A stretch of DNA of 64,000 nt, taken from Escherichia phage 348Ecol098PP. Shown piece after piece: positions 6,861 through 63,419 of the stretch; position 1 is the first letter of the stretch, and each line of letters starts with the position of its first letter. The notes under the pieces are model-generated. The model had not been told where the DNA came from. It worked only from the letters and a program-made list of their open reading frames with translations, and ran no database searches. A program made the position numbers and the translations under genes. The DNA is taken from sequence record OR062947.1. The stretch is one strand, 5' to 3'.

Positions 6861-6891
6861 CCTATCAAATAAACAGCCTCAAGGAAATAAA

Positions 6892-7203
6892 ATGAAAACT
6901 TATCAAGAGTTTATCGCTGAAGCTACTAAAGCCGATAAAAATTTTATTATTAACACCACCGGTCCGTTAGATGATGAATACGCTAATGCTATTATTAAGT
7001 CAATTTCTAATCAAGGCGTTGAAGTAACAAATTTCGAATATAAGAAAAATGATACTTATATGATAATTAGTATCAAAAAAGGTTCAAAGGCTAAAATTAA
7101 ATCTGCATTTGGTGTTATGCGAGTCGACCAAATCGATAACCACGATTTTTCACAAACAGGGGCCAAACGCCAAAACACCATTTCTTCTAAAGGCATAAAA
7201 TAA
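6892..7203 (+). CDS. internal-protein-like protein with capsid targeting sequence
   Basis: N-terminus MKTYQEFIAE = T4 internal protein capsid targeting sequence (CTS). Confidence 0.75.
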   Translation: MKTYQEFIAEATKADKNFIINTTGPLDDEYANAIIKSISNQGVEVTNFEYKKNDTYMIISIKKGSKAKIKSAFGVMRVDQIDNHDFSQTGAKRQNTISSKGIK

Positions 7204-7242: not shown

Positions 7243-7264
7243 AAATAACCAAATGGAACCTAAA

Positions 7265-7528
7265 ATGAAAACTTTCAACGAATTCATCTCAGAATCGTCT
7301 GGTGTGAAAATTAACAAAGCGGTCAATCAGGTTATTGCTGATATTCTTAATTTGTATAACATTGACTTAACTCCGCATATCACGCTTGGTAACAAACGAA
7401 ACTTTTTCATATTTGACACATCCGAACTTGATGAAAATCAGTTCAATAACATTCAACGTTTTGCGAATGATAAAGGTCTTCGACACGAGCCTGGTGGCTA
7501 TAAAAAATACGCAATATATTTGAAATAA
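7265..7528 (+). CDS. internal-protein-like protein with CTS
   Basis: Starts MKTFNEFISE (CTS pattern); SD upstream. Confidence 0.7.
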   Translation: MKTFNEFISESSGVKINKAVNQVIADILNLYNIDLTPHITLGNKRNFFIFDTSELDENQFNNIQRFANDKGLRHEPGGYKKYAIYLK

Positions 7529-7529
7529 A

Positions 7530-7572
7530 GGTATACAAGCCTATAGGGATATGTTATAGTAGTCCTATCAAA
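7530..7572 (+). promoter_or_regulatory. early promoter / PeSL-like cassette
   Basis: gtatacaa ... tgttatagtagtcctatc, same cassette family. Confidence 0.45.
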
Positions 7573-9033: not shown

Positions 9034-9107
9034 GGCCCTGTAGCTCAACGGTTAGCAGCAGTCCCCTCATAAGGGAAAGGTTACCAGTTCGAATCTGGTC
9101 TGGGTCA
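9034..9107 (+). tRNA. tRNA with CAU anticodon (Ile2 or Met)
   Basis: Hand-folded cloverleaf: acceptor GGCCCTG/CTGGGTC (one mismatch), D-loop with GG, anticodon loop CTCATAA, T-arm ACCAG-TTCGAAT-CTGGT; no encoded CCA. Confidence 0.6.
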
Positions 9108-9113
9108 TATATT

Positions 9114-9189
9114 CGAGGCATAGCTCAGAAGGAAGAGCAAGGACCTTCTAAGTCCTAGGTCGTAGGTTCGATCCCTACTGTCTCGACCA
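9114..9189 (+). tRNA. tRNA-Arg (anticodon UCU)
   Basis: Hand-folded: acceptor CGAGGCA/TGTCTCG, D-arm GCTC-AGAAGGAA-GAGC, anticodon loop CTTCTAA, T-arm GTAGG-TTCGATC-CCTAC, encoded CCA. Confidence 0.8.
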
Positions 9190-9927: not shown

Positions 9928-10554
9928 ATGTATACTTTTAATGAATTTTTAGCCGAAACGGAAGTAATCACCGAAGCCGGTGTACGTATGACAAAAGAGA
10001 AATGGCAAGCTGCTTACGATGCTATTTCTGGTACAAAAACTAGTACAGAGTTTTTCAAAAACGTTCAAGCCATGTACGGTATCGACACTTCCAGCCAAAA
10101 AGAATATTACAGAGCTTCTAAAGCATTCAAAGATATTGTTAGTGGTGGTGTTTCTGCTAAATCGGGTTCGCCTAAAGTAAAACCTGCTCCTACCATTCCT
10201 AAACCTGCGACCCCTAAAGCAATAGCAAAACCTGAGCCTAAGCCGGAAGTAAAAGCAACTCCTAAAGCTCCTGCTCTTAAGTTTGATACTTCTAGCCTGG
10301 AAAAAAAATATAAACAACTATCTTCGCTTGTTCGCGATATTGAATCCGATACATCTTCACTCGTTCGTGAATTCAATAGTCTTCGTAATGGCCAACATAT
10401 CAACAACCTTGATACCCCGGACCTTTATCGTCTTTATTTGACTATCGAAGGTTTGAAGTACACTCAACCACTTCACGACGCGATTAAAGAAAAACTTCGT
10501 CAGGCAGGTCGTTTGGCTGCTGACGCTGCTCAGTATGCAAAAACTCGTAAGTAA
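9928..10554 (+). CDS. internal-protein-like protein with CTS and Pro/Lys-rich linker
   Basis: Starts MYTFNEFLAE (CTS pattern); central PKxxP low-complexity segment. Confidence 0.7.
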   Translation: MYTFNEFLAETEVITEAGVRMTKEKWQAAYDAISGTKTSTEFFKNVQAMYGIDTSSQKEYYRASKAFKDIVSGGVSAKSGSPKVKPAPTIPKPATPKAIAKPEPKPEVKATPKAPALKFDTSSLEKKYKQLSSLVRDIESDTSSLVREFNSLRNGQHINNLDTPDLYRLYLTIEGLKYTQPLHDAIKEKLRQAGRLAADAAQYAKTRK

Positions 10555-10559
10555 AGAAT

Positions 10560-10578
10560 GGGGACTTCGGTCCCCTTT
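10560..10578 (+). terminator. rho-independent terminator (TTCG tetraloop)
   Basis: ggggac-ttcg-gtcccc followed by TTT. Confidence 0.65.
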
Positions 10579-10604
10579 AGGGGGTCTATAACTTACTGAA
10601 AAAG

Positions 10605-10645
10605 TTGTTTACTTCTTCCCTAGATGTGTTACTATAGACCTATCA
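10605..10645 (+). promoter_or_regulatory. early promoter
   Basis: GTTTAC ... gtgttactat before ORF 10664. Confidence 0.5.
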
Positions 10646-11248: not shown

Positions 11249-11476
11249 ATGGCTAAAGTTAGTATTGATGTCGTTGATTATGAATACACCGAAGAAGTTA
11301 TTCGCAACCGTCACCCTGAAGTTCGTATCGATTCAGCCCAAGATTCCAAGTTCTGGACAACTGAGCTTAATCTGAGTGGTCCTTATGAAGCTGTTAAGAA
11401 GTTCATGGTTGAAGAATACTGCGAAGGCATGCACCCGGAAGACGCCAAGTTTTATGTCAATTTGATTAAAAAATAA
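11249..11476 (+). CDS. hypothetical protein
   Basis: 75-aa ORF. Confidence 0.6.
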   Translation: MAKVSIDVVDYEYTEEVIRNRHPEVRIDSAQDSKFWTTELNLSGPYEAVKKFMVEEYCEGMHPEDAKFYVNLIKK

Positions 11477-11524
11477 TTTACAAACTCTTGAGAGCAGAGT
11501 ATAATGCTCTCATTGGATAATAAA
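11477..11524 (+). promoter_or_regulatory. early promoter TTTACA-17-TATAAT within inverted repeat; duplicated cassette
   Basis: Canonical -35/-10 spacing; inverted repeat gagagca/tgctctc around -10; 45-nt identical copy at 40957-41001. Confidence 0.65.
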
Positions 11525-12148: not shown

Positions 12149-12170
12149 GGAGGACTCCGGTCCTCCTTTT
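12149..12170 (+). terminator. rho-independent terminator
   Basis: ggaggac-tccg-gtcctcc followed by TTTT. Confidence 0.7.
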
Positions 12171-12792: not shown

Positions 12793-13153
12793 GCCCTGGG
12801 CATACGAATACAAACGTAAATTAATCCCAAACGAAGTACTATTTGGCCCTATTTTAGCTTTAGCATTTTTAATCTTTATGATTATAGGAGCTGTTTTAGA
12901 TTCTAGTGAAGTTATATCGTCTGATGCAGTGTTTTTACTTATTATAGCTGGGTCGTTTATTGTGCCATTTTTATTAATGCCTATTAATTGGGTGGGATAT
13001 TGGTACCAAGGACGTCATCACAGAGCTAGAGTACGCGAATGGAAAATTCAATGTGCAAAAGCAAGAGCTCAATATGACGAGGCTGTTAAAAAATATGAAT
13101 ATGACGAAGCCATGGAATTCGTTAAGGAGATAAGATGCAAAAGCCTGAACTGA
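12782..13153 (+). CDS. membrane protein (2 predicted TM)
   Basis: Starts at ATG overlapping upstream stop; hydrophobic segments. Confidence 0.55.
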   Translation: MPSKPWAYEYKRKLIPNEVLFGPILALAFLIFMIIGAVLDSSEVISSDAVFLLIIAGSFIVPFLLMPINWVGYWYQGRHHRARVREWKIQCAKARAQYDEAVKKYEYDEAMEFVKEIRCKSLN

Positions 13154-13162
13154 ATTTATGCT

Positions 13163-13192
13163 GTTTACGCTTCTCAAATGATTAGTTATAAT
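13163..13192 (+). promoter_or_regulatory. early promoter GTTTAC-N18-TATAAT
   Basis: Direct read. Confidence 0.55.
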
Positions 13193-15343: not shown

Positions 15344-15385
15344 CTGTTTACGCAATTATAGGACTATGTTATAGTAGTCCTATTA
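15344..15385 (+). promoter_or_regulatory. early promoter inside perfect inverted repeat (PeSL)
   Basis: GTTTAC, inverted repeat ataggacta/tagtcctat flanking tgttatag. Confidence 0.55.
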
Positions 15386-17591: not shown

Positions 17592-18080
17592 ATGAATATA
17601 TTTGAAATGCTTCGTAATGACGAAGGTCTTAGACTGACTTTATATAAAGACACTGAAGGCTTTTGGACGATTGGCATAGGCCATTTAGTAACAAAGAACC
17701 CGTCTTTAGCCGTAGCTAAAGCTGAACTTGACAGAATGATCGGTCGTAAATGCAACGGTACAATTACCCTTGATGAGGCTGAAAAGCTATTTAATGAAGA
17801 CGTTGATAAAGCCGTTCGCGGAATCTTGGGTAATGCTAAACTTAAACCGGTATACGATTCTTTAGATGCAGTTCGTCGATGTGCATTGGTCAATATGGTC
17901 TTCCAAATGGGTGTAGCAGGCGTCGCCGGTTTTACTAATTCTCTTCGTATGCTTCAACAGAAACGTTGGGATGAAGCGGCAGTAAATCTAGCCCAATCTA
18001 AATGGTATCGTCAGACACCTAATCGCGCGAAACGCGTAATCTCAACATTTAAAACAGGAACTTGGAAAGCGTATATATGA
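17592..18080 (+). CDS. e: endolysin (T4 lysozyme e)
   Basis: [32 protein letters not shown]..., about 164 aa. Confidence 0.95.
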
Positions 18081-18358
18081 AAACATATAGTGAATTTTTA
18101 TCAGAATCTATTCTTAACGAAGCTACTGACACATTTGCAACTAAGCTAGGTGCAGCTTTGGTTGAAGCTGAAAGTCTATTAGCACGTATTTCTGAACTTG
18201 CTAGTAAGATAGATACTCGCAAATTTGAGCGCACCAGTGATATCGTTAAGCTTGAAGCCTTATTGCGTATGTGCGATAAACCGGAAGAAATCGCTAAGAA
18301 CGGCTCGCTGATGAAACAACGTCTTGAAAAATATATTTCAGGCGCTTCAGAAAAATAG
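18077..18358 (+). CDS. internal-protein-like protein with CTS
   Basis: Starts [10 protein letters not shown], overlaps e stop. Confidence 0.7.
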
Positions 18359-18359
18359 T

Positions 18360-18412
18360 GTTTACTTCCTCCAAGGGTTTTGATACTATACATTCATCAA
18401 CTACTTGGAGGA
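18360..18412 (+). promoter_or_regulatory. early promoter in stem-loop whose 3-prime arm carries the SD (PeSL)
   Basis: GTTTAC; inverted repeat tcctccaag/cttggagga; SD for denV inside 3-prime arm. Confidence 0.5.
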
Positions 18413-18416
18413 AATT

Positions 18417-18830
18417 ATGACTCGTATCAATTTAACACTTGTTTCTGAACTGACCGACCAACACCTTATGGCTGAGTATCGTGAATTACCACGCGTATTT
18501 GGTGCAGTCCGTAAACATGTTCAAAACGGTAAACGTGTAAAGGATTTTAAAATCTCTCCAACATTTATCTTAGGCACAGGTCACGTAACATTCTTTTACG
18601 ACAAACTCGAATTTTTACGTTTACGACAAATCGAGCTAATCGCTGAATGTTTGAAACGTGGTTTCAAAATCAAGGACACGACAGTCCAGGATATTTCCGA
18701 CATCCCTGCCGAATTTCGTAATAATTATGTCCCGTCCGAAGCGTCCATTGCGATAAGTCAAGCGCGCTTAGATGAAAAAATTGCTCAACGTCCGACTTGG
18801 TACAAATACTATGGTAAATCAATTTACTAA
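18417..18830 (+). CDS. denV: endonuclease V (pyrimidine dimer DNA glycosylase) DenV
   Basis: [34 protein letters not shown]..., recalled T4 endo V. Confidence 0.9.
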
Positions 18831-18836
18831 GGAAAA

Positions 18837-19097
18837 ATGAAAATGTATCAAGAATTTATCGTTGAAGCAGATGCCAAAGGTCCTAAATTTAAAGTTAAAG
18901 CTTTCATTGGTGATGCGGAAGACTTTGGCTCATTAAAACGTAATGGGTATTCTTTCTTAGGTGGCAATGGTAAAGAAATCAACACCTATGCAAAACGTAG
19001 TGAAATTGCTTATGTTGTAGCAAGTCCTAAAGTAGATGTTGACGATATTGGATATGATTTTAACAACTTCGGAATTATTTCTGGCGGTAAAGCTTAA
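18837..19097 (+). CDS. internal-protein-like protein with CTS (ipII position)
   Basis: Starts MKMYQEFIVE; follows denV as ipII does in T4. Confidence 0.7.
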   Translation: MKMYQEFIVEADAKGPKFKVKAFIGDAEDFGSLKRNGYSFLGGNGKEINTYAKRSEIAYVVASPKVDVDDIGYDFNNFGIISGGKA

Positions 19098-19130: not shown

Positions 19131-19161
19131 TACTCTATCAAAACAAACAAGGAAACAAAAA

Positions 19162-19476
19162 ATGAAAACGTATAAAGAATTTATTGCAGAATCCGCCAAC
19201 CAACGCGTTGAAGGTGGTTATATTTGGATTGAACAAGTTGAGCCACCGAGCCGCACTTCTACAGGTAAATGGAAAATTACTGTTGACGGTCCTGGCGGTA
19301 AACGTAGGACTCTTAAAGAAATTAATGGGTACTATGAAGAAGCTCTTTCGGATGCAGGAACTTACATGATGCAAATCATGATTAAAAACCCTGAAAACCG
19401 TTTTGCAGCTAAAGTCTTCCGTCGTATTGGTAATAAACTTTATGATGCATACTCTAAAAACTTCCCTAAAGAATAA
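19162..19476 (+). CDS. internal-protein-like protein with CTS (ipIII-like)
   Basis: Starts MKTYKEFIAE. Confidence 0.7.
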   Translation: MKTYKEFIAESANQRVEGGYIWIEQVEPPSRTSTGKWKITVDGPGGKRRTLKEINGYYEEALSDAGTYMMQIMIKNPENRFAAKVFRRIGNKLYDAYSKNFPKE

Positions 19477-19501
19477 CATAAATTAAAACAATAGGAACAA
19501 A

Positions 19502-19831
19502 ATGAAAACATATCAGGAGTTTATCACTGAAGTTACATTATCTGCGGAACAGAAAGCTGCTATCGAAGAAGGTAAAAATCCCAAAGTAACATATAAAGTA
19601 AATAGTAAAGGCGTTTTTGATGGCTTGGTTCAAGACCCTGAATTGAAAAAAGTTCTTTCTAAAACTAATGCGTACTTTGCTCCTAAATTTAACACAGCCG
19701 GTGTACTTATTGGATTGGATGTATTCAACTCTAAAGGTGTTCTATCTAATGCCTTTGGTTATGCCGCTAACAAAATTACCAAAGCCGCATGGGAATCCAA
19801 TACTAAACAAGCTCAAAAGCCTAGAGTATAA
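19502..19831 (+). CDS. internal-protein-like protein with CTS (ipIII-like)
   Basis: Starts MKTYQEFITE. Confidence 0.7.
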   Translation: MKTYQEFITEVTLSAEQKAAIEEGKNPKVTYKVNSKGVFDGLVQDPELKKVLSKTNAYFAPKFNTAGVLIGLDVFNSKGVLSNAFGYAANKITKAAWESNTKQAQKPRV

Positions 19832-21917: not shown

Positions 21918-21965
21918 TTTACTTCTCCTCTAGTTGTGTTACTATAGACCTGTCAACTAGAGGAG
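21918..21965 (+). promoter_or_regulatory. early promoter in 12-bp perfect inverted repeat (PeSL)
   Basis: GTTTAC; ctcctctagttg / caactagaggag; 3-prime arm carries SD of regB. Confidence 0.55.
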
Positions 21966-21973
21966 AAATCAAA

Positions 21974-22432
21974 ATGACTATCAATTCAGACGTTTTTATC
22001 CGCCGTAATAAACTCCGTCGAATCTTTGAAACGGAGTTCCGCAAAATAAATGCCGGTATAAAAGATGCTGCAAAGTCTCTTGGACTACCAGGCTTTCATA
22101 TCAAGTATTCTCAACATCTCTTAGATCGTGCCATCCAGAGAGAAATAGATGAGAATTACGTTTTTGAATTATTTCATAAAGTAAAAAATCATGTTAAAGA
22201 AGTTGCAGAATTTTTATCAATGCCGGCACGTCCAGATGTTGATGAAGATTTTGTCGAAGGTGTCGAATATCGCCCAGGCCGTTTAGAAATAACTGATGGA
22301 AATCTTTGGTTAGGACTTACAGTTTGTCGCGAAAATCCAGCATTCAAAATGAAGACTCTTCAATGCAGAATGGCTATTATTAACAGTAAACGACTACCAG
22401 GAAAAGCTTCTAAAGCAGTGATTAAAATCTAG
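21974..22432 (+). CDS. regB: endoribonuclease RegB
   Basis: MTINSDVFIRRNKLRR...HLLDRAIQREIDENYVFELFHK...RLPGKASKAVIK, recalled T4 RegB. Confidence 0.8.
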   Translation: MTINSDVFIRRNKLRRIFETEFRKINAGIKDAAKSLGLPGFHIKYSQHLLDRAIQREIDENYVFELFHKVKNHVKEVAEFLSMPARPDVDEDFVEGVEYRPGRLEITDGNLWLGLTVCRENPAFKMKTLQCRMAIINSKRLPGKASKAVIKI

Positions 22433-25154: not shown

Positions 25155-25206
25155 GTTTACTTCTCCTCAGGTTGTGTTATAGTAAACCTTACTTACTAGA
25201 GGAGAA
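25155..25206 (+). promoter_or_regulatory. early promoter / PeSL with SD in 3-prime arm
   Basis: GTTTAC; inverted repeat ttctcctc/gaggagaa. Confidence 0.5.
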
Positions 25207-25210
25207 CGTT

Positions 25211-25390
25211 ATGTCACGTAAAGAAAAAATTTCTAAGTTAATGTTTTTGATTGAAGAGTACGCTAATGCGGTATCTGATTGGGAAAATGCTCATGGTTGC
25301 GAAGATGGAGACATCGACATTAACAGAGCTATGAAAAAGATGGCTGATACGCACACCGAATTGCAAATGTATGTTAACGAGATTATGTGA
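25211..25390 (+). CDS. small hypothetical protein
   Basis: Internal ATG with SD gaggag. Confidence 0.5.
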   Translation: MSRKEKISKLMFLIEEYANAVSDWENAHGCEDGDIDINRAMKKMADTHTELQMYVNEIM

Positions 25391-27918: not shown

Positions 27919-28200
27919 ATGAAAAAATTAGTAATTGGTTTATTCGCAGTAATGATGGCATTCTCTGTTGGTGCTACCACAGGTGCAGCCGGCGGTAGTG
28001 CAGGAGCTGGTGGTAACCAGTCTTCTGGGCCTTCCAACGGTTCGGTAAATGCATCACATTCTCAGGGTATTGAGAACATTAAATCAAGCTATATTAATAG
28101 CACGGCCGGACAAGCAACTGAAGCATGGTCAAAGGGCCGAGTAGTTACTCGCTCCGTATTCTGTGATATGCCTAATTATGTTGCTAAGTGCGATAAGTAA
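27919..28200 (+). CDS. secreted Gly-rich protein
   Basis: Signal peptide then GAAGGSAGAGG. Confidence 0.55.
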   Translation: MKKLVIGLFAVMMAFSVGATTGAAGGSAGAGGNQSSGPSNGSVNASHSQGIENIKSSYINSTAGQATEAWSKGRVVTRSVFCDMPNYVAKCDK

Positions 28201-28204
28201 ATGT

Positions 28205-28224
28205 GGGGACCTTCGGGTCCCTTT
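28205..28224 (+). terminator. rho-independent terminator
   Basis: gggacc-ttcg-ggtccc + TTT. Confidence 0.65.
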
Positions 28225-28249
28225 AGGGGGTTAAAATATTTAAAAAAGT

Positions 28250-28285
28250 AGTGTACATGCTTTTAGGATATGTTATTATAGACCT
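28250..28285 (+). promoter_or_regulatory. early promoter
   Basis: gtgtaca ... tgttattatagacctatc. Confidence 0.45.
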
Positions 28286-31367: not shown

Positions 31368-31396
31368 TGTACAACCAAGGATGGTTGGAGTATAAT
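31368..31396 (+). promoter_or_regulatory. early promoter TGTACA-N17-TATAAT (duplicated cassette)
   Basis: 27-nt tacaaccaaggatggttggagtataat identical at 32390-32416. Confidence 0.6.
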
Positions 31397-31422: not shown

Positions 31423-32382
31423 ATGGCTTTTATTACACGTAGAGAACTTATCAAAGAATTTACCTCGAACGCATATACTCCAGGACCTAATCCTATCCGT
31501 ATGCCTGTAAAGACTCCTGAAGAGATTGAGGAAATCTGTTCATATTATGGGATTACTTCTCGTAAGTTTACTCAATTTGAATGCGTTACTAACACACCCG
31601 TTAAAGAGTTCATTAAAAATGGCGAGTTCAGCCGTTTATTGGCCAAACAGAAACTTCGTAATTTTTGTATTGGCGGTGAAGGACAATATTTCGCTAAGCA
31701 GTTCCGGAATAACCTTAACAATCTGATGGCCATTGCTTCTCGTATTCGTCCTCAAGCAATTAACATGAAACATTTGAAATATACTTACGATAAGTTGGAA
31801 ATCATGGTTATCAGTGAGAACGAGTTCACTCTCACGTATAAACCTAAGAATGATAACGTTGCTCGTGTATTCCACCAAGCGTTGGAAGTTTTAGGTGATA
31901 ATATTCACCAGATTAAAGCAATTTATTCTCGTGAGCTTAATATTATCGACCCTATCAAGAATAAGGGCCATATCGCTATCCAAGCTCGTGTATCTATTGG
32001 TAAAAAGGTTCCTGCGCCATGGTGGCACAAAGACTCTGAATACTATCAAAATCTTAAAAAGGAAAATGCATTGTTTGAAGGCAATATTACAGCAACACCA
32101 GTCGGTAATGCAGAGGTTCTAGGCGCATATTCTCCAGCACAATCTGGTATGTTTAAAGGTTTGCCAAATGTGTGCAAACTGTCGGCAGTAAAACTAAATG
32201 TTTCTAATGACCTTCTTCCGGCCGAAGATTATCATTACAACCAAATCAAGGCTACTGTAGACCAACTGTCCGTTGAACTTGACAAAGCACAAGCTAAGCT
32301 TCGTGATGCTCAACAGGTGGTGACCAATCTCCAGTTGCAGTACTCTAAACTTTTTAACGCAATGAATGCATTAAAATCATAA
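31423..32382 (+). CDS. hypothetical protein with C-terminal coiled coil (array member 2)
   Basis: 319 aa. Confidence 0.6.
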   Translation: MAFITRRELIKEFTSNAYTPGPNPIRMPVKTPEEIEEICSYYGITSRKFTQFECVTNTPVKEFIKNGEFSRLLAKQKLRNFCIGGEGQYFAKQFRNNLNNLMAIASRIRPQAINMKHLKYTYDKLEIMVISENEFTLTYKPKNDNVARVFHQALEVLGDNIHQIKAIYSRELNIIDPIKNKGHIAIQARVSIGKKVPAPWWHKDSEYYQNLKKENALFEGNITATPVGNAEVLGAYSPAQSGMFKGLPNVCKLSAVKLNVSNDLLPAEDYHYNQIKATVDQLSVELDKAQAKLRDAQQVVTNLQLQYSKLFNAMNALKS

Positions 32383-32387
32383 AATAG

Positions 32388-32416
32388 TTTACAACCAAGG
32401 ATGGTTGGAGTATAAT
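32388..32416 (+). promoter_or_regulatory. early promoter GTTTACA-N17-TATAAT (duplicated cassette)
   Basis: Near-identical to 31368-31396. Confidence 0.6.
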
Positions 32417-35089: not shown

Positions 35090-35563
35090 ATGTTATTATC
35101 AGGCGCAAAATATAAAGAAGAAAAACAAAAATTTTATGATGCACAGAATGGTAAGTGTCCTATTTGCCACCGTGAATTAGACCCTGATGTTCAAGGTAAC
35201 CATCTTGACCACGACCATGAATTAAACGGGCCAAAAGCAGGTAGAGTTCGTGGGTTACTCTGTAATCTGTGCAATGCAGCAGAAGGTCAAATGAAGCATA
35301 AGTTCAACCGTTCCGGTCTTAAAAGACGTGATGTCGACTACCTCGAATGGCTTGAAGCTCTTCTTGCTTATTTGAAACAAGATTATTCTGATAATAATAT
35401 CCATCCTAATTTTGTTCCAGACAAAACTAAAGAGTTCTCAAGACTAGGTAAAGAGGAAATGATGTCCGAGATGCTTCAAAGAGGATTTGAATATAATGAA
35501 TCTGATACCAAAACACAATTAATAGCTTCATTCAAAAAGCAGCTTAGAAAGAGTTTAAAATGA
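35090..35563 (+). CDS. 49: endonuclease VII (Holliday junction resolvase) gp49
   Basis: 157 aa; CxxC...HLDHDHELNGPKAG...CNLCN zinc/H-N-H-like motifs; recalled T4 gp49. Confidence 0.9.
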   Translation: MLLSGAKYKEEKQKFYDAQNGKCPICHRELDPDVQGNHLDHDHELNGPKAGRVRGLLCNLCNAAEGQMKHKFNRSGLKRRDVDYLEWLEALLAYLKQDYSDNNIHPNFVPDKTKEFSRLGKEEMMSEMLQRGFEYNESDTKTQLIASFKKQLRKSLK

Positions 35564-36381
35564 ATGTAGTATATAAACTATCATTTATTAATAGAATTAA
35601 TGCTAAAACCCCACCATATTATTACATTGGAAGTAAAACCAATTGCACTTTTGATGGAACGAATATTATTGATAAAAATGGTAAATTTTATTATTCGTCT
35701 TCGTCATCTTCCGAATTTCAAAAAGCCTTATTGAAAGAAACGCCGAAAGTTGAAATATTATATTTTCAATTAGTCGGAGATGAACAAATAACTAGCATTG
35801 AAGCTGAATTTCAAAAGAATATAGAAAAAGATGTATGGAATAAAGAGTATTTTAATTTAGCATATGCTGATGGCAAATTTACGACATATGGTATTTCTCC
35901 TTCTAAAGAAACTAGAGAAAAACAATCAATAACCATGATTAAAAGAAATCGTAATAAAGGCAAAAATCATGGATTTTATGGAAAGCATCATACTAATTTA
36001 GCCAGAAAGAAAATATCAGAAGCTTCTAAAAAATACTGGAAAGAAAATCCGCATCGTGGATTTTCGCATACAAAGGAAGCTAAAATTAAAATTGGAATTT
36101 CATCTTCTATCAGGCATAAAGGAAGTGGAAATCCGATGTATGGTGTAAAACCTTGGAAAACTCCGAACGCAATTAAATCTGGTACTTGTATATTATGGTT
36201 AAAATACGCAGAAATTTTATATGATTATTTAGGTCCAGATTTTAAAAGTAAATCATCTATTTTTGCGGATTTAAACTTACCGAAATTTAGAATTGATAAT
36301 TTCATCAAAAGGTTTAAAATGGGTTGGAACCCATATTTAGACGAAGAATTTCAAAAGGATAAATTAGAATTATGTCTTTAG
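35560..36381 (+). CDS. GIY-YIG homing endonuclease (Seg / I-TevI-like) with NUMOD3-like repeats
   Basis: VYKLSFINRIN...YYYIGSKTN GIY-YIG motif; repeated GxxHxxExKxKIS motifs; strongly AT-rich. Confidence 0.75.
   Translation: MNVVYKLSFINRINAKTPPYYYIGSKTNCTFDGTNIIDKNGKFYYSSSSSSEFQKALLKETPKVEILYFQLVGDEQITSIEAEFQKNIEKDVWNKEYFNLAYADGKFTTYGISPSKETREKQSITMIKRNRNKGKNHGFYGKHHTNLARKKISEASKKYWKENPHRGFSHTKEAKIKIGISSSIRHKGSGNPMYGVKPWKTPNAIKSGTCILWLKYAEILYDYLGPDFKSKSSIFADLNLPKFRIDNFIKRFKMGWNPYLDEEFQKDKLELCL
35560..36381 (+). mobile_element. free-standing homing endonuclease gene between gene 49 and nrdD
   Basis: Same as CDS; composition differs from flanking genes. Confidence 0.6.
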
Positions 36382-39704: not shown

Positions 39705-39750
39705 GTTTACATCCTCAATAGATGTGTTAAGATTAAACCATCTACTATAG
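39705..39750 (+). promoter_or_regulatory. early promoter (approximate)
   Basis: GTTTACA with imperfect inverted repeat. Confidence 0.4.
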
Positions 39751-39761
39751 AGGAAAATAAA

Positions 39762-40010
39762 ATGATTAGTTTAGATTCAAAGAAAGTTGTTCTAACTCTT
39801 AATGTAAATAACGAACGTCTGATATTCATTACCATTTCCGATTTGAACGTTGAAATTGCTAATGGCGTCCGTACTTATCAAACGTCTAAAACACATTGGG
39901 ACTATATCCCAATGTTGACGCTTACTCAGCGTTTAGAATCAATCGGTCTTAAAGACCTTTCAGTAAGTGAAGTGAATTTTATCAAACGCATTGTATCAAT
40001 CAACCTCTGA
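39762..40010 (+). CDS. hypothetical protein
   Basis: SD gagga before ATG. Confidence 0.55.
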   Translation: MISLDSKKVVLTLNVNNERLIFITISDLNVEIANGVRTYQTSKTHWDYIPMLTLTQRLESIGLKDLSVSEVNFIKRIVSINL

Positions 40011-40652: not shown

Positions 40653-40692
40653 ATGTACAACGATAGGAAGACATGTTATTATCTTCCTATCG
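40653..40692 (+). promoter_or_regulatory. early promoter in 10-bp perfect inverted repeat (PeSL)
   Basis: atgtaca; gataggaaga/tcttcctatc. Confidence 0.55.
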
Positions 40693-40713: not shown

Positions 40714-40953
40714 ATGGAACAAGAATTAGACATTACTACATCGAAAAAACGTCTTGAAGTCGTAGTGAATGGTTCAACTATTAAGTTTGTATATGACACT
40801 TTAACTGATGCTATTACCGTTAGTTGTGGTGGAAAGGCTTTTAGTCTAGATTCTACTGAAAACAAATACCCGTTCTATAAAGGTATCTTTGATATGGGTG
40901 TTGATATCAGTGTTCGTCAAGCAAACTATTTACATTATCTTATCACGAAATAA
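40714..40953 (+). CDS. hypothetical protein
   Basis: 79-aa ORF. Confidence 0.55.
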   Translation: MEQELDITTSKKRLEVVVNGSTIKFVYDTLTDAITVSCGGKAFSLDSTENKYPFYKGIFDMGVDISVRQANYLHYLITK

Positions 40954-41001
40954 TGCACAAACTCTTGAGAGCAGAGTATAATGCTCTCATTGGATAATAA
41001 A
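40954..41001 (+). promoter_or_regulatory. early promoter, second copy of the 11477 cassette
   Basis: 45-nt identity with 11480-11524. Confidence 0.65.
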
Positions 41002-41576: not shown

Positions 41577-41731
41577 AACTATCTTGAATCGCTATAACCG
41601 AAGAAAAGTTTGGTGAATTTTAAGTCGACAACTTTATGAAAGTTACGTATCTTTGATAGTATCTCGTGCTTTAAGATAGGTCTCTAAATATTATGATATA
41701 ATAGACCTATGAATTGAGCCAAGAGGTACTT

Positions 41732-44776: not shown

Positions 44777-46461
44777 AATCATTTAAATTAAATCGTGTTC
44801 GTTATCAAAACATCATGTCGGTAGGTGGGAATCCTATTGACATCCAATTAGATAAAGTCCAAAAGACATTAATCACTGGTAAAAATGGTGGTGGTAAATC
44901 TACGATGTTAGAAGCCATTACTTTCGGACTTTTCGGTAAACCATTTCGTGATGTTAAGAAAGGGCAAATCATTAATAGCACGAACAAGAAAGAGCTCTTA
45001 GTTGAGCTTTGGATGGAATTCGATGGTAAAAAATACTTCATTAAACGTGGCCAAAAGCCCAATATTTTCGAAATCTCCGTTGACGGTGTTCGTCTCGATG
45101 AATCTGCCAGCAGTCGTGACTTCCAAGAAGAATTTGAACGTAGCATCGGAATGTCATACGCGTCTTTTAAACAAATCGTTGTGCTTGGGACGGCAGGGTA
45201 TACCCCTTTCATGGCTCTTAGCACCCCTGCTCGTAGAAAACTTGTCGAAGACCTTTTAGAAGTCGGCACACTCGCTGAAATGGATAAAATCAATAAGTCT
45301 CAAGTTCGAGAACTTAATTCCCAGGGACAAGTTCTCGATGCCAAGAAAGATGGTGTTATCCAACAAATTAAGATTTATAACGAGAATATCGAACGTCAAA
45401 AGAAATTATCTGGTGATAATGTAGCGCGTCTACAGAATATGTATGATGACCTAGCCAAAGAAGCTCGTTCATTAAAAGCAGAAATCGAAGAAGCTAATGA
45501 GCGACTACTTAATATCGTTCTTGATGAAGACCCTACTGAGGCATTCAACAAGATCGGACAAGAAGCATTCTTGATTAAATCTAAAATCGACTCATATAAC
45601 AAAGTTATTAAGATGTATCATGACGGTGGCACATGTCCTACTTGTGCGTCACAGTTGCACCAGGGTGACCCTATTGTCTCTAAGATTACCGATAAGCTTC
45701 ATGAATGTAATCACTCATTCGAGCAACTTACATGTCACAGAGATAATCTGAGTGTCCTAGTGGACGAATATAGAGCTAATGTTAAGACTAAACAGGACCT
45801 TGCATCTGATATTCGTACCAAGAAACAAGCAATGATTGCCACTATTGATAAAGCTAAGAAAGTTAAAGCTGCAATAGAACAAGCCTCGGCGGAATTTATC
45901 GACCATGCCGATGAGATAGCTTTGCTTCAAAAAGAACTTGATAAAATCATTAAAACAAAATCAGATATCGTTCTTGAAAAATACCATCGTGGTATTATCA
46001 CAGATATGTTAAAAGATTCTGGTATTAAAGGTGCTATCATTAAAAAATACGTGCCTCTGTTCAACAAGCAGATTAACCATTATCTTAAAATCATGGAAGC
46101 TGATTACGTGTTTTCTATTGACGAAGAATTCAATGAATCTATAAAATCACGTGGCCGCGAAGAGTTCAGTTATGCTTCATTTAGTCAAGGTGAAAAAGCA
46201 CGTATCGATATCGCGTTATTGTTTACATGGCGAGATATTGCTGAAAAGGTCTCTGGTGTTAGAATCAATACATTAATTATGGACGAAGTCATGGATTCCG
46301 CGACTGATTCTGAAGGTATTAAAGCTATTTCAACAATTCTTAACTCTCTAACCGATGCAAACGTGTTTATAATTAGTCACAGAGACCATGACCCACAAGC
46401 TTATGGACAGCATTTGCAAATGAGCAAAGTTGGACGATTTACTGTAATGAAAGCCTCTTAA
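44773..46461 (+). CDS. 46: recombination endonuclease subunit gp46 (Rad50-like ATPase)
   Basis: 562 aa; Walker A GKNGGGKST, zinc hook CPTC, signature and Walker B near C-terminus. Confidence 0.9.
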   Translation: MKSFKLNRVRYQNIMSVGGNPIDIQLDKVQKTLITGKNGGGKSTMLEAITFGLFGKPFRDVKKGQIINSTNKKELLVELWMEFDGKKYFIKRGQKPNIFEISVDGVRLDESASSRDFQEEFERSIGMSYASFKQIVVLGTAGYTPFMALSTPARRKLVEDLLEVGTLAEMDKINKSQVRELNSQGQVLDAKKDGVIQQIKIYNENIERQKKLSGDNVARLQNMYDDLAKEARSLKAEIEEANERLLNIVLDEDPTEAFNKIGQEAFLIKSKIDSYNKVIKMYHDGGTCPTCASQLHQGDPIVSKITDKLHECNHSFEQLTCHRDNLSVLVDEYRANVKTKQDLASDIRTKKQAMIATIDKAKKVKAAIEQASAEFIDHADEIALLQKELDKIIKTKSDIVLEKYHRGIITDMLKDSGIKGAIIKKYVPLFNKQINHYLKIMEADYVFSIDEEFNESIKSRGREEFSYASFSQGEKARIDIALLFTWRDIAEKVSGVRINTLIMDEVMDSATDSEGIKAISTILNSLTDANVFIISHRDHDPQAYGQHLQMSKVGRFTVMKAS

Positions 46462-47174
46462 TGAGGCTTATGTTTACAGTTATCAAAATGCCAACGACGC
46501 ATATTAGCAGGGATCCCTATTTTATCGCAATGAGGACATTTAATTTTCTTGTCCTCTTTTTTCTTTCTGTTAGGATTTGATTTACAGAATTTTATATGCG
46601 GCTTTAACGCCGATAACTTAGTAGTTAAGCCACAAAACGGACAAGAATCTTCTTTCCAAATTTTCGTGGCCATGGTTTTAATTATTTTATCTTTTGTTTC
46701 TTGATCAAGTTTTACTATTTTAGGCGTAGGGCCTTGTTTACAGTTATCAAAATGCCAACGTCTCATGTTTCCTTCAGTGCCGGTTAAACCGCAGTGTGGA
46801 CATGTAATCTTTGGTTTATTTTTTGCCGACTCAGACATTTTCTTACGAGTTTCAGCAGTGAATTCTTTGTTCTTTTGAACTTCTTGATTCTTACGTCGAA
46901 GCCATCCAAATAATTTGTTTTTGCTTCTATCTGCTTTAGGAGATGAGATAGTCATCATACGAGCAGCATATATTAAAGAGGCATTATCTGGATGGATTTT
47001 TACCAACAGTTGATGTGCCAAATAATGTTCTTCCGGTGTTAAGTCTACTAAGTTTAAAGCATCATCACTTCCACCTAAACATTGTGGTATAATGTGATGA
47101 CGTTCTGTATAACCATCTAAACTTCTTGATTTAGCATTGGTGATAAGCTTTTCGTATATTGAGTTATAATTCAT
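46458..47174 (-). CDS. HNH homing endonuclease with three C-terminal Cys-His repeats
   Basis: HNH motif ERHHIIPQCLGGSDDALNLVDLTPEEHYLAH; repeated CPHCG...MRRWHFDNCK; only minus-strand gene in an all-plus region. Confidence 0.75.
   Translation of the reverse strand: MNYNSIYEKLITNAKSRSLDGYTERHHIIPQCLGGSDDALNLVDLTPEEHYLAHQLLVKIHPDNASLIYAARMMTISSPKADRSKNKLFGWLRRKNQEVQKNKEFTAETRKKMSESAKNKPKITCPHCGLTGTEGNMRRWHFDNCKQGPTPKIVKLDQETKDKIIKTMATKIWKEDSCPFCGLTTKLSALKPHIKFCKSNPNRKKKEDKKIKCPHCDKIGIPANMRRWHFDNCKHKPH
46458..47174 (-). mobile_element. free-standing HNH homing endonuclease gene between 46 and 45.2
   Basis: Opposite orientation to neighbours; internal 30-nt direct repeats (46471 and 46737). Confidence 0.6.
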
Positions 47175-50206: not shown

Positions 50207-50575
50207 ATGATTGAAATTAAATTGAAGAACCCTGAAGATTTTCTGAAAGTCAAAGAGACTCTGACCCGTATGGGCATCGCTAATAACAAGGATAAAGTCC
50301 TTTACCAGTCTTGTCATATCCTCCAAAAGCAAGGTAAATACTATATCGTCCACTTTAAAGAAATGCTGCGTATGGACGGACGTCAGGTTGATATTGACGG
50401 TGAAGACTATCAGCGACGTGATTCGATTGCTCAGTTGCTTGAAGACTGGGGATTGATTGTTATTGAAGATTCTGCTCGTGAAGATCTATTTAGCCTGACT
50501 AATAACTTCCGAGTTATCTCTTTTAAACAGAAAGATGACTGGACTTTGAAAGCAAAATATACAATTGGTAATTAA
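50207..50575 (+). CDS. regA: translational repressor RegA
   Basis: MIEIKLKNPEDFLKVKETLTRMGIANNKDKVLYQSCHILQK... Confidence 0.9.
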   Translation: MIEIKLKNPEDFLKVKETLTRMGIANNKDKVLYQSCHILQKQGKYYIVHFKEMLRMDGRQVDIDGEDYQRRDSIAQLLEDWGLIVIEDSAREDLFSLTNNFRVISFKQKDDWTLKAKYTIGN

Positions 50576-50581
50576 AGCAAT

Positions 50582-50599
50582 GGGACTTCGGTCCCATTT
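50582..50599 (+). terminator. hairpin after regA (terminator and/or gene 43 translational operator)
   Basis: gggac-ttcg-gtccc followed by aTTT, 58 nt before gene 43. Confidence 0.45.
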
Positions 50600-50656
50600 G
50601 GAGTATAATAAGTTCATCAACAAACAAAAGACAATAACTCGTCTAAAGGAAATTAA

Positions 50657-61570: not shown

Positions 61571-63013
61571 GTGGTAGAAATTATTTTGTCTCATCTAGTA
61601 TACGACCAGGCTTATTTTTCTAAGGTCTGGCCTTATATGGATTCTGAGTATTTTGAGCGTGGACCGGCAAAAAATGTCTTTAAAATTATAAAGAGCCACG
61701 TTAACGAATATAATGCAATGCCATCTATCAATGCGTTAAAGGTGGCTTTAGATAACAGTTCTTTAACTGAAGCCGAATATAAAGGAACTTCAGACCTAAT
61801 TGAAAAATTGGCTGATACTCCTGAAGACCACGAATGGTTGGTTAAAGAAACTGAGAAATATGTCCAGCAAAAAGCGATGTATAACGCTACATCCAAAATC
61901 ATTGAGATTCAGTCTAATGCTGAACTACCTCCAGAACAACGTAACAAGAAAATGCCTGACGTAGGAGCTATTCCTGATATTATGCGTCAAGCACTTTCAA
62001 TTTCGTTTGATAGTTATGTTGGGCATGACTGGATGGAAGACTACGAAGCACGCTGGCTTTCTTATCTGAACAAAGCACGTAAGGTCCCGTTCAAATTAAA
62101 CATTTTGAATAAAATCACTAAAGGTGGTGCTGAAACCGGTACACTAAACGTTTTAATGGCTGGTGTTAACGTCGGTAAATCTTTAGGCCTTTGTTCACTT
62201 GCTGCAGATTATCTTCAAACAGGTCATAATGTTCTTTATATTTCCATGGAAATGGCTGAAGAAGTTTGTGCTAAGCGTATAGATGCAAACATGCTTGACG
62301 TATCACTTGATGATATTGATGATGGTAACGTATCTTATGCTGAATATAAAGCCAAGATGGAAAAATGGCGTTCAAAAACAACATTAGGACGTTTAGTAGT
62401 TAAACAGTATCCTACTGGTGGAGCTAATGCTAATACATTCCGTGCATTGCTTAATGAATTGAAACTCAAGAAGAACTTTGTGCCATCTGTAATCATGGTT
62501 GATTACTTAGGTATTTGTGGGTCTTGTCGTATCAGAGTTTACACTGAAAATAGCTACACATTAGTTAAAGCTATCGCAGAAGAACTTCGTGCATTAGCAG
62601 TAGAATCTGAAACAGTTCTATGGACTGCAGCTCAAGTAGGACGTGCAGCATGGGATGCTTCAGACATGAACATGAGTGATATTGCAGAATCAGCAGGTTT
62701 ACCAGCAACGGCAGATTTCATGTTGGCCGTAATTGAAACCGAAGAACTTGCACAAGCTGAACAACAACTTATCAAACAAATCAAATCACGATACGGTGAT
62801 AAGAATAAGTGGAATAAATTCCTGATGGGTGTACGTAAAGGCAACCAGAAATGGATTGAGATTGAGCAAGAAGGCATGAACACACCTAACACAGTAAATG
62901 AAAACGCAGGTGCTCAGATGCGTCAGGCAGAGATGAATCGTACGGAACGCGTAGGTAAAGCCAAAGCAACACGTGCTGACCTAGATAGCTTAGCCAATGA
63001 GTTAAAATTTTAA
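61571..63013 (+). CDS. 41: replicative DNA helicase gp41 (DnaB-like)
   Basis: 480 aa; Walker A GVNVGKS, Walker B IMVDYLG. Confidence 0.9.
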   Translation: MVEIILSHLVYDQAYFSKVWPYMDSEYFERGPAKNVFKIIKSHVNEYNAMPSINALKVALDNSSLTEAEYKGTSDLIEKLADTPEDHEWLVKETEKYVQQKAMYNATSKIIEIQSNAELPPEQRNKKMPDVGAIPDIMRQALSISFDSYVGHDWMEDYEARWLSYLNKARKVPFKLNILNKITKGGAETGTLNVLMAGVNVGKSLGLCSLAADYLQTGHNVLYISMEMAEEVCAKRIDANMLDVSLDDIDDGNVSYAEYKAKMEKWRSKTTLGRLVVKQYPTGGANANTFRALLNELKLKKNFVPSVIMVDYLGICGSCRIRVYTENSYTLVKAIAEELRALAVESETVLWTAAQVGRAAWDASDMNMSDIAESAGLPATADFMLAVIETEELAQAEQQLIKQIKSRYGDKNKWNKFLMGVRKGNQKWIEIEQEGMNTPNTVNENAGAQMRQAEMNRTERVGKAKATRADLDSLANELKF

Positions 63014-63019
63014 TAAAAA

Positions 63020-63038
63020 GGAGACTTCGGTCTCCTTT
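63020..63038 (+). terminator. rho-independent terminator
   Basis: ggagac-ttcg-gtctcc + TTT. Confidence 0.65.
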
Positions 63039-63101
63039 CGGGGTTTACATCTTCCTCTAGGCATGATATGATGTACTTACACCAACCAAGAGGAGAACAA
63101 A

Positions 63102-63419
63102 ATGAAAACCATCGATTGTAAAGCAGAATTTAAGATTTTTTATCACGGTTCAAGTAGTTCAGCTAACATCGAAAACATGCTTTGTCCTCCTGAGGAAACA
63201 GGAGTTCTGTCTGAAACCGGACGTAAGAAAAACTTGGATCGTGTATTCTTTACTGAAGATATCGGTTTAGCAAAGATTTATGCAGGACGAGCAGCACGCT
63301 CTTATGGAGGTGAACCACGTCTCTATCGAGTAATTTCTCCGGTAGACGTAGTTCAAATGAATAATACTAAAGGTGCTACAGTTTATCACGCTGAATGGGC
63401 ATTTTGTGAGGAAATATGA
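63102..63419 (+). CDS. hypothetical protein
   Basis: 105-aa ORF with SD agaggag. Confidence 0.55.
   Translation: MKTIDCKAEFKIFYHGSSSSANIENMLCPPEETGVLSETGRKKNLDRVFFTEDIGLAKIYAGRAARSYGGEPRLYRVISPVDVVQMNNTKGATVYHAEWAFCEEI

Follow-up and report, generated by a model that had tools for sequence, protein, structure and literature searches.

The 64,000-nucleotide stretch of Escherichia phage 348Ecol098PP analysed here (record OR062947.1, hereafter the window) carries two pairs of exactly repeated promoter cassettes, A/B and C/D, and we are confident in regarding them as sigma70 early promoters of the PeSL type, old direct repeats that would act as portable homology. As defined by Arbiol et al. 2010 (PMC2839356) and Comeau et al. 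2014 (PMC4122927), PeSLs (promoter-early stem-loops) are composite cassettes of an early promoter and a stem-loop; they recur in variable regions of T4-type genomes, where they mediate the gain, loss and exchange of small genes. The window shows 97-99% identity to genomes of Mosigvirus, the T4-type coliphages around RB69 and JS09, and its early genes lie on the + strand.

The A/B repeat, ACAAACTCTTGAGAGCAGAGTATAATGCTCTCATTGGATAATAAA, covers 45 nt at 11480-11524 (A) and 40957-41001 (B), and the C/D repeat, TACAACCAAGGATGGTTGGAGTATAAT, covers 27 nt at 31370-31396 (C) and 32390-32416 (D); all copies are on the + strand and show no mismatches within either pair. The number of such repeats expected by chance was zero (100 dinucleotide-preserving shuffles), and no extra copy of either repeat with up to three mismatches was found in the window. 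For A/B the longest exact run is 45 nt and the homology reaches 54 nt with two mismatches and 68 nt at 88%, both mismatches within the 54 nt lying in the -35 hexamer (TTTACA in A, TGCACA in B). For C/D the longest exact run is 27 nt and the homology reaches 43 nt at 86%. By the gene names of the RB69 and JS09 records, the neighbours of A are frd.3 and e.6 and those of B are ORF075c and 55.2; C separates nrdC.6 from nrdC.5, and D separates nrdC.5 from nrdC.3, so that C and D are direct repeats 1020 bp apart with the single gene nrdC.5 between them. The parts of the cassettes and their neighbours are as follows.

11249-11476, + strand: frd.3, the gene upstream of cassette A (Pfam Phage_FRD3)
11477-11505, + strand: cassette A promoter, -35 TTTACA at 11477-11482, 17-nt spacer, -10 TATAAT at 11500-11505
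11489-11512, + strand: cassette A stem-loop, arms TGAGAGCA (11489-11496) and TGCTCTCA (11505-11512), loop GAGTATAA
11547-12140, + strand: e.6, the gene downstream of cassette A, from the RB69/JS09 annotation and the ORF
31368-31396, + strand: cassette C promoter, TGTACA-17-TATAAT, -35 overlapping the nrdC.6 stop codon; spacer stem at 31372-31387
31423-32382, + strand: nrdC.5 (RB69 name; Pfam DUF7235), the sole gene between C and D
32388-32416, + strand: cassette D promoter, TTTACA-17-TATAAT; spacer stem at 32392-32407
40654-40682, + strand: early promoter, TGTACA-17-TATTAT, at the left edge of the ORF075c module
40714-40953, + strand: RB69ORF075c, flanked by the 40654 promoter and cassette B
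40954-40982, + strand: cassette B promoter, -35 TGCACA, 17-nt spacer, -10 TATAAT at 40977-40982
40966-40989, + strand: cassette B stem-loop, identical in sequence to the cassette A stem-loop
41020-41352, + strand: gene 55.2 (Pfam DUF7570), downstream of cassette B

In the promoter scan cassette A agrees with 11 and cassette B with 10 of the 12 sigma70 consensus positions. The -35 element of A starts directly after the frd.3 stop codon TAA (11474-11476) and the stop codon of ORF075c is found just 5' of B; in all four cassettes an upstream stop codon stands at the cassette start, and a Shine-Dalgarno (SD) sequence and ATG follow within 30-45 nt. The site orthologous to A is annotated as a host-type promoter in the ATK47 and ATK48 records, and that of D as 'promoter' in SA35RD and NBG1. 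Transcription is predicted to start at about 11512 in A and about 40989 in B, and A would drive e.6 and B would drive 55.2. The sequence, together with knowledge of T4, suggests that each cassette drives its downstream gene immediately after infection.

No protein alignment was obtained between frd.3 and ORF075c or between e.6 and 55.2, and nrdC.6, nrdC.5 and nrdC.3 gave no mutual protein match. The flanking genes thus encode unrelated proteins, and duplication of genes does not account for the repeats. In these respects the original prediction was borne out: it had described exact 45-nt and 27-nt repeats at these positions, called them promoter cassettes, and taken the intergenic regions to be otherwise unrelated.

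In the window we curated a set of 23 early promoters built in this way, each 5' of an SD and ATG. Their -35 and -10 hexamers and spacing are common to all, and it could be argued that the repeats are alike only because any strong sigma70 promoter looks that way. We find such convergence hardly credible, as the identity spans the non-consensus spacer and 19 nt 3' of the -10 element, which vary among the other promoters, and as A and B differ in their -35 hexamers alone.

Three further readings of the cassettes were rejected, namely middle promoter, intrinsic terminator and known Rfam family. A MotA-dependent middle promoter has, in place of the -35 element, a MotA box (a/t)(a/t)(a/t)TGCTTtA about 12 bp 5' of the -10; the -35 hexamers of A, C and D fit the early consensus, TGCACAA of cassette B agrees with only four of seven MotA-box positions, and TGCTTCA in RB69 lies about 30 nt from the -10. 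The A/B stem is followed by UUGGAUAAUAAA, which holds no U-tract, and the C/D stem lies within the spacer; the terminator scan reports neither, and terminator-type hairpins are found elsewhere in the window at 10560-10575 and 12149-12166. The stems have no Rfam match, and only two tRNAs in the whole window reach the gathering threshold. The tRNA genes at 9034-9107 and 9114-9186 are tRNA-Met and tRNA-Arg in RB69-group records.

The A/B stem is an 8-bp inverted repeat around the -10 element with arms at -23 to -16 and -7 to +1. Its RNA is predicted to fold at -13.8 kcal/mol (z = -4.2), and none of 200 shuffles folds as well. The promoter at 40654 likewise has a 12-bp stem around its -10, with arms ACGATAGGAAGA and TCTTCCTATCGT and a fold of -18.6 kcal/mol (z = -4.5). 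In C/D the stem CAACC(A) / (U)GGUUG, 5-6 bp, sits inside the spacer between the -35 and -10 elements; alone it is weak and not significant (z = -1.4 to -1.7). Compensatory stem variants of the C/D subtype occur in Dhakavirus, in Gaprivervirus and in a third promoter in the window, and a further genomic copy of this subtype is located between dexA and motB.1.

We aligned 14 sequences of the A/B subtype from six genera. The loop is invariant, and the arms vary yet stay complementary: 95.5% of the cells are paired and five of the eight pairs have changed on both sides. This covariation score was reached by none of 500 shuffles, and slid registers pair at no more than 57%. Among the arm variants are GAGAGC/GCTCTC, GGGACC/GGTCCC and GAGGAC/GTCCTC and, within RB69, CGAGAGA/TCTCTCG; cassette B of RB69 differs from cassette A of the same genome at two pairs, in which compensatory changes have turned T-A into C-G and C-G into A-T. 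As a guide to whether the stem works as RNA or as DNA, the one-sided changes were counted: the cross-genus alignment has five G.U on the sense strand and no A.C, but the orthologous promoters give 13 G.U against 8 A.C, a noisy tally, and the stem may act in either form.

The inverted repeat might instead be an operator for a dimeric DNA-binding regulator, for instance one acting in early-promoter shut-off, rather than a folded structure. The repeat is centred on the -10, and early-promoter shut-off in T4 has been described as not fully understood. However, the arms change in sequence while remaining complementary, which a sequence-specific protein would not tolerate, and other promoters in the window have unrelated arm sequences; we therefore consider an operator very unlikely.

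The complementarity could also stem from mutation and not from selection, by template switching that copies one arm of a quasi-palindrome onto the other. Such switching was first described in T4, and it would account for the frequent double changes, the nearly perfect stems and the similar substitution in stems and unpaired positions of the orthologous promoters (about 3.4% against 2.8%). It fits poorly with a geometry that stays fixed, the 3' arm running from -7 or -8, across six genera and many unrelated arms, with G.U-type partial changes that persist uncorrected, and with the attenuator effect measured for one PeSL stem. On balance, template switching seems unlikely as the source of the stems.

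Complementarity between arms extends to the promoter set as a whole. In the 23 window promoters the spacer arm pairs with the promoter's own downstream arm at a mean of -11.5 kcal/mol, against -7.8 with the arms of other promoters, and none of 20,000 permutations was as low as the observed mean. In 22 kb of T4, with the known dmd/tifA promoter included, the corresponding values are -11.4 and -7.0 (69 of 20,000 permutations). Two geometries are present in the window set: a stem embracing the -10, as in A and B, whose 3' arm begins at -7 or -8, and an anti-SD arm in the spacer that pairs with the SD. In T4 (OZ209023.1) the dmd/tifA promoter, at about 20597 of the early strand, carries a stem of 10 bp, GACAAGACTA / TAGTCTTGTC, around the -10 TATAGT, with the geometry of the TAGTCCTATC class of the window. 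Early promoters of the anti-SD kind are seen at 21918-21976, 18361-18419, 25156-25213, 39706-39764 and 63044-63104; in the first of these the spacer arm TTCTCCTCTAGTTG (21923-21936) pairs with CAACTAGAGGAGAA (21954-21967) over 14 bp at -21.6 kcal/mol. At the anti-SD promoters the ribosome site would be sequestered in read-through transcripts and free in the promoter's own transcript.

In A and B the predicted transcription start coincides with the final base of the 3' arm, so that the cassette's own transcript would lack the stem, which would be present in transcripts reading through from upstream promoters. For the effect of the stem on such read-through we borrow from one assay: a PeSL stem of RB49/phi1 attenuates read-through and cuts a downstream reporter as strongly as the rrnB T1 terminator (PMC2839356, PMC4122927). 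As no U-tract follows the A/B stem and the scan calls no terminator there, the stem's attenuator function may be weak or unlike that of the tested PeSL. Further, we speculate, with considerable doubt, that the stem wrapping the -10 goes beyond a recombination homology or crude attenuator and is a selected structure, kept by compensatory changes in at least six genera including T4, that would exist only in read-through mRNA, or that its DNA form aids early-promoter shut-off. If so, each such gene would be made as two mRNA forms with different stability, processing or translation.

The cassettes were compared with the published PeSLs. All four show an upstream stop codon in an AT-rich stretch, sigma70-like -35 and -10 elements, a stem-loop and then an SD and ATG, and like PeSLs they are multi-copy in one genome, lie beside variable small genes and, in the case of C/D, leave a single chimeric cassette at an indel. 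The surroundings are variable, with presence or absence of nrdC.5, an allele swap at ORF075c and many indels. A/B, with the stem overlapping the -10, and C/D, with the stem between the boxes, correspond to the two commonest published layouts; we had considered the -10-embracing stem as an undescribed type and discarded this, as it is one of the published PeSL subclasses. Every PeSL feature that can be checked in sequence is thus present, and A-D are in all probability early promoters of the PeSL type, A and B forming one sequence subfamily (stem around the -10) and C and D another (stem in the spacer). Some differences should be noted. The published PeSLs come from RB49/phi1, T4/PST and KVP40/nt-1 and not from the RB69 group; the stems of RB49 are of a G-run/C-run type, unlike those of A-D; and mini-circles and attenuation belong to the published PeSLs, whereas A-D are known here from their sequence. 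What is added to the knowledge of PeSLs is the cross-genus covariation of the stems and a population count of one indel.

A hairpin family GGGGAC-TTCG-GTCCCC is also found in the window, at 10548-10585, 28194-28231 and 63008-63045 and in addition at 50569-50606. The first three hairpins stand directly 5' of the promoters at 10608, 28252 and 63044, which is the canonical PeSL layout of terminator plus promoter.

The indel concerns nrdC.5, and here the cassettes themselves are the recombination points. In phage G2469 nrdC.6 is followed directly by nrdC.3 with no nrdC.5 DNA, and base-by-base reading of the junction shows one hybrid cassette made up of the left flank of C, the 27-nt core and the right flank of D. 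Among the 153 Mosigvirus records matching the nrdC.6/nrdC.3 region, drawn as for all our population counts from the GenBank phage collection, 132 carry nrdC.5 and 21 are contiguous without it, the 20 other than G2469 being classed by contiguous BLAST coverage and not by base-by-base reading. The event may be either a deletion or an insertion. By tblastn (E <= 1e-5) the matches of the nrdC.5 protein of the window are confined to 132 Mosigvirus records, T4 giving none. The nrdC.5 of T4 has an anti-Dsr1 counter-defence function (PMC9391042); we rejected this role for the gene between C and D, as tblastn gave no T4 homolog at that threshold.

A second case is found at cassette B. The ORF075c allele of RB69 is 62-84% identical to that of the window, against 96-98% outside the two promoters, and the identity to RB69 is regained leftward of the 40654 promoter and rightward from inside cassette B. 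The suggestion that the cassettes recombine is thus supported for C/D by the hybrid junction in G2469 and the 21 contiguous records, and for B by a divergent RB69 allele that ends inside the cassette; the original prediction had proposed a search for recombinant junctions in related genomes, and this gives a clear result for C/D, in the hybrid cassette that lacks nrdC.5.

Further, indel edges relative to relatives fall exactly at -35 elements at 7531, 13163, 15351/15358 and 28258. Over the region, 8 of 42 junction edges lie in cassettes, which cover 4% of it (P = 2e-4 under a uniform null); against a null restricted to non-coding DNA the count is 6 of 14 versus 28%, which is not significant (P = 0.18). 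Relatives have extra segments of about 250 bp at 13151-13163 (all three of JS09, phi25-307 and RB69), 275 bp at 15351-15358 (JS09) and 213-336 bp at 28258 (phi25-307 and RB69), and their edges coincide exactly with the -35 hexamers of three promoters (13164, 15347 and 28252).

Other variable segments were noted in the window. The 5' coding segment ATGAAAAC(N)TATCAAGAGTTTAT, which encodes MKTYQEFI, recurs in several small genes (6888-6921, 7261-7294, 18833-18866, 19158-19191 and 19498-19531, with weaker copies at 9928-9957 and 18077-18106); it matches the capsid-targeting sequence of T4 internal proteins. JS09 has internal virion proteins annotated at the matching positions, and indel edges relative to relatives lie in these repeats at 6914, 7291, 18887 and 19495-19528. 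Between gene 49 and nrdD, at 35560-36381, a 273-aa ORF with a NUMOD3 motif resembles a free-standing homing endonuclease; it is part of an 866-bp segment in place of which JS09, phi25-307 and RB69 have 54 bp. On the - strand at 46458-47174, between gene 46 and 45.2, a 238-aa ORF has a sub-threshold zinc-ribbon match and an internal 77-nt direct repeat (46471-46547 and 46735-46811, 74%), and its 806-bp segment is replaced by 67 bp in the same three phages. RB69ORF072c, found in JS09 and RB69 with 184 bp of extra sequence between 55.1 and gene 55, is missing from the window (41577-41731; junction 41653/41655) and from phi25-307.

We propose that these cassettes, being direct repeats in a highly recombining genome, provide homology that is portable. 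Crossing over between C and D would delete, or in reverse insert, the intervening gene and leave one hybrid promoter, and exchanges at B and at the promoter at 40654 would swap the ORF075c allele as a self-expressed module. No product of a crossover between A and B is expected, because 29.5 kb including gene 49, which is essential in T4, would be deleted.

The age of the copies was assessed from their positions in relatives. Both the A/B pair and the C/D pair occupy the same orthologous loci in RB69, JS09 and phi25-307, and A is also present in G2469; the 27-nt C/D core is unchanged at both loci in all four genomes of the C/D comparison, with adjacent coding DNA 85-97% identical. In other genera the A/B subtype is found 5' of motB (T4 and T2), near pseT.2 (JS98) and at a nucleoid-disruption protein gene in an Enterobacter phage, with more sites in Gaprivervirus and Marfavirus. 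A scan of IMG/VR with the cassette core gave only three loci, all in one unrelated context. From the orthologous loci, the copies in other genera and the compensatory arm changes we infer that the duplications are old and that the stems have been maintained.

A recent duplication or transposition, by which a cassette was copied to a second locus shortly before sampling, would explain why the copies are 100% identical within this genome and why the exact B haplotype of the window is rare in the population. We judge it extremely improbable: both copies of each pair lie at orthologous positions in relatives, the diverged copies in RB69 and in other genera point to an old family, and neither terminal repeats, target-site duplications nor a transposase accompany the cassettes. 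Hence the original prediction holds for promoter cassettes that are points of recombination, while its notion of recent copying has to be given up, as the same loci are occupied in relatives and the same subtypes stand at other loci in other genera.

The exact identity of A and B could still have been restored later by gene conversion, in which a short tract was copied across 29.5 kb from one locus to the other in the lineage that the window shares with phi25-307, erasing the few differences seen in other genomes. Most genomes show one to seven differences between their A and B copies. The A haplotype of the window is exact in about 52-57 of about 155 records and the B haplotype only in phi25-307 and SQ17; of the other phages, phi25-307 alone was seen to have A and B both exact, SQ17 not being among the exact A matches listed. 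At all three sites where the B copy of the window departs from the common JS09-type B it agrees with the A copy, and at position 11517 its A copy has an A, like the B copies, where RB69, JS09 and G2469 have a G. On the other hand, two of the three B-site states are also found in the divergent B copy of RB69 and may be ancestral, the A/G difference at 11517 is a common polymorphism (A in about 52-57 of about 155 records), and the informative sites are few. A gene-conversion tract thus seems a plausible but tentative explanation; both it and retained ancestral sequence are possible. In the account that we prefer, the copies would be kept alike by common descent and by strong constraint on promoter and stem, possibly with occasional gene conversion.

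The cassettes may further be set against other known systems. A total of 57 early promoters were predicted in RB69 (Nolan et al. 2006, PMC1524935). Like the early promoters of T4 and RB69 (PMC1524935; Hinton 2010, PMC2988021), the cassettes have a GTTTAC-type -35, a TAnnnT -10, an AT-rich upstream region and a C-rich stretch from -3 to -1, and they lie 5' of early genes and novel ORFs. In the accessible parts of these two papers such promoters are described as linear consensus motifs with no mention of arm-to-arm complementarity; dyad symmetry in T4 early promoters may have been mentioned earlier.

The translational hairpins of T4 (e, soc, 49 and I-TevI; Uzan and Miller 2010, PMC3014915) share with the window promoters a promoter inside the hairpin, long read-through transcripts that fold and a promoter's own transcript that is without the 5' arm. 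The window promoters at 21918 and 18361 hide the SD as those hairpins do, whereas the internal promoter is a late one in the known T4 cases (PMC3014915) and an early one in the window; cassettes A and B are unlike them in that the stem ends at +1 and the SD is untouched. In T4, accessory early genes are also gained and lost through short direct repeats by deletions and amplifications (Srikant et al. 2022, PMC9391042). Those repeats were chance microhomologies of 6-10 bp in laboratory evolution, while C/D is a conserved 27-nt functional cassette and a natural polymorphism.

Taken together, these findings extend the PeSL model to the RB69 group, in which PeSLs had not been specifically described, and the cross-genus covariation indicates that the embedded stems are maintained and not accidental. 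The nrdC.5 gene offers a clean natural example: it is flanked by a 27-nt repeat, the junction formed in its absence is a hybrid, and 132 records carry the gene while 21 lack it. In phage engineering and therapy, such repeats predict where deletions arise. Regulatory cassettes of this kind would double as portable recombination sites, by which small accessory genes move among T4-like genomes ready to be expressed.
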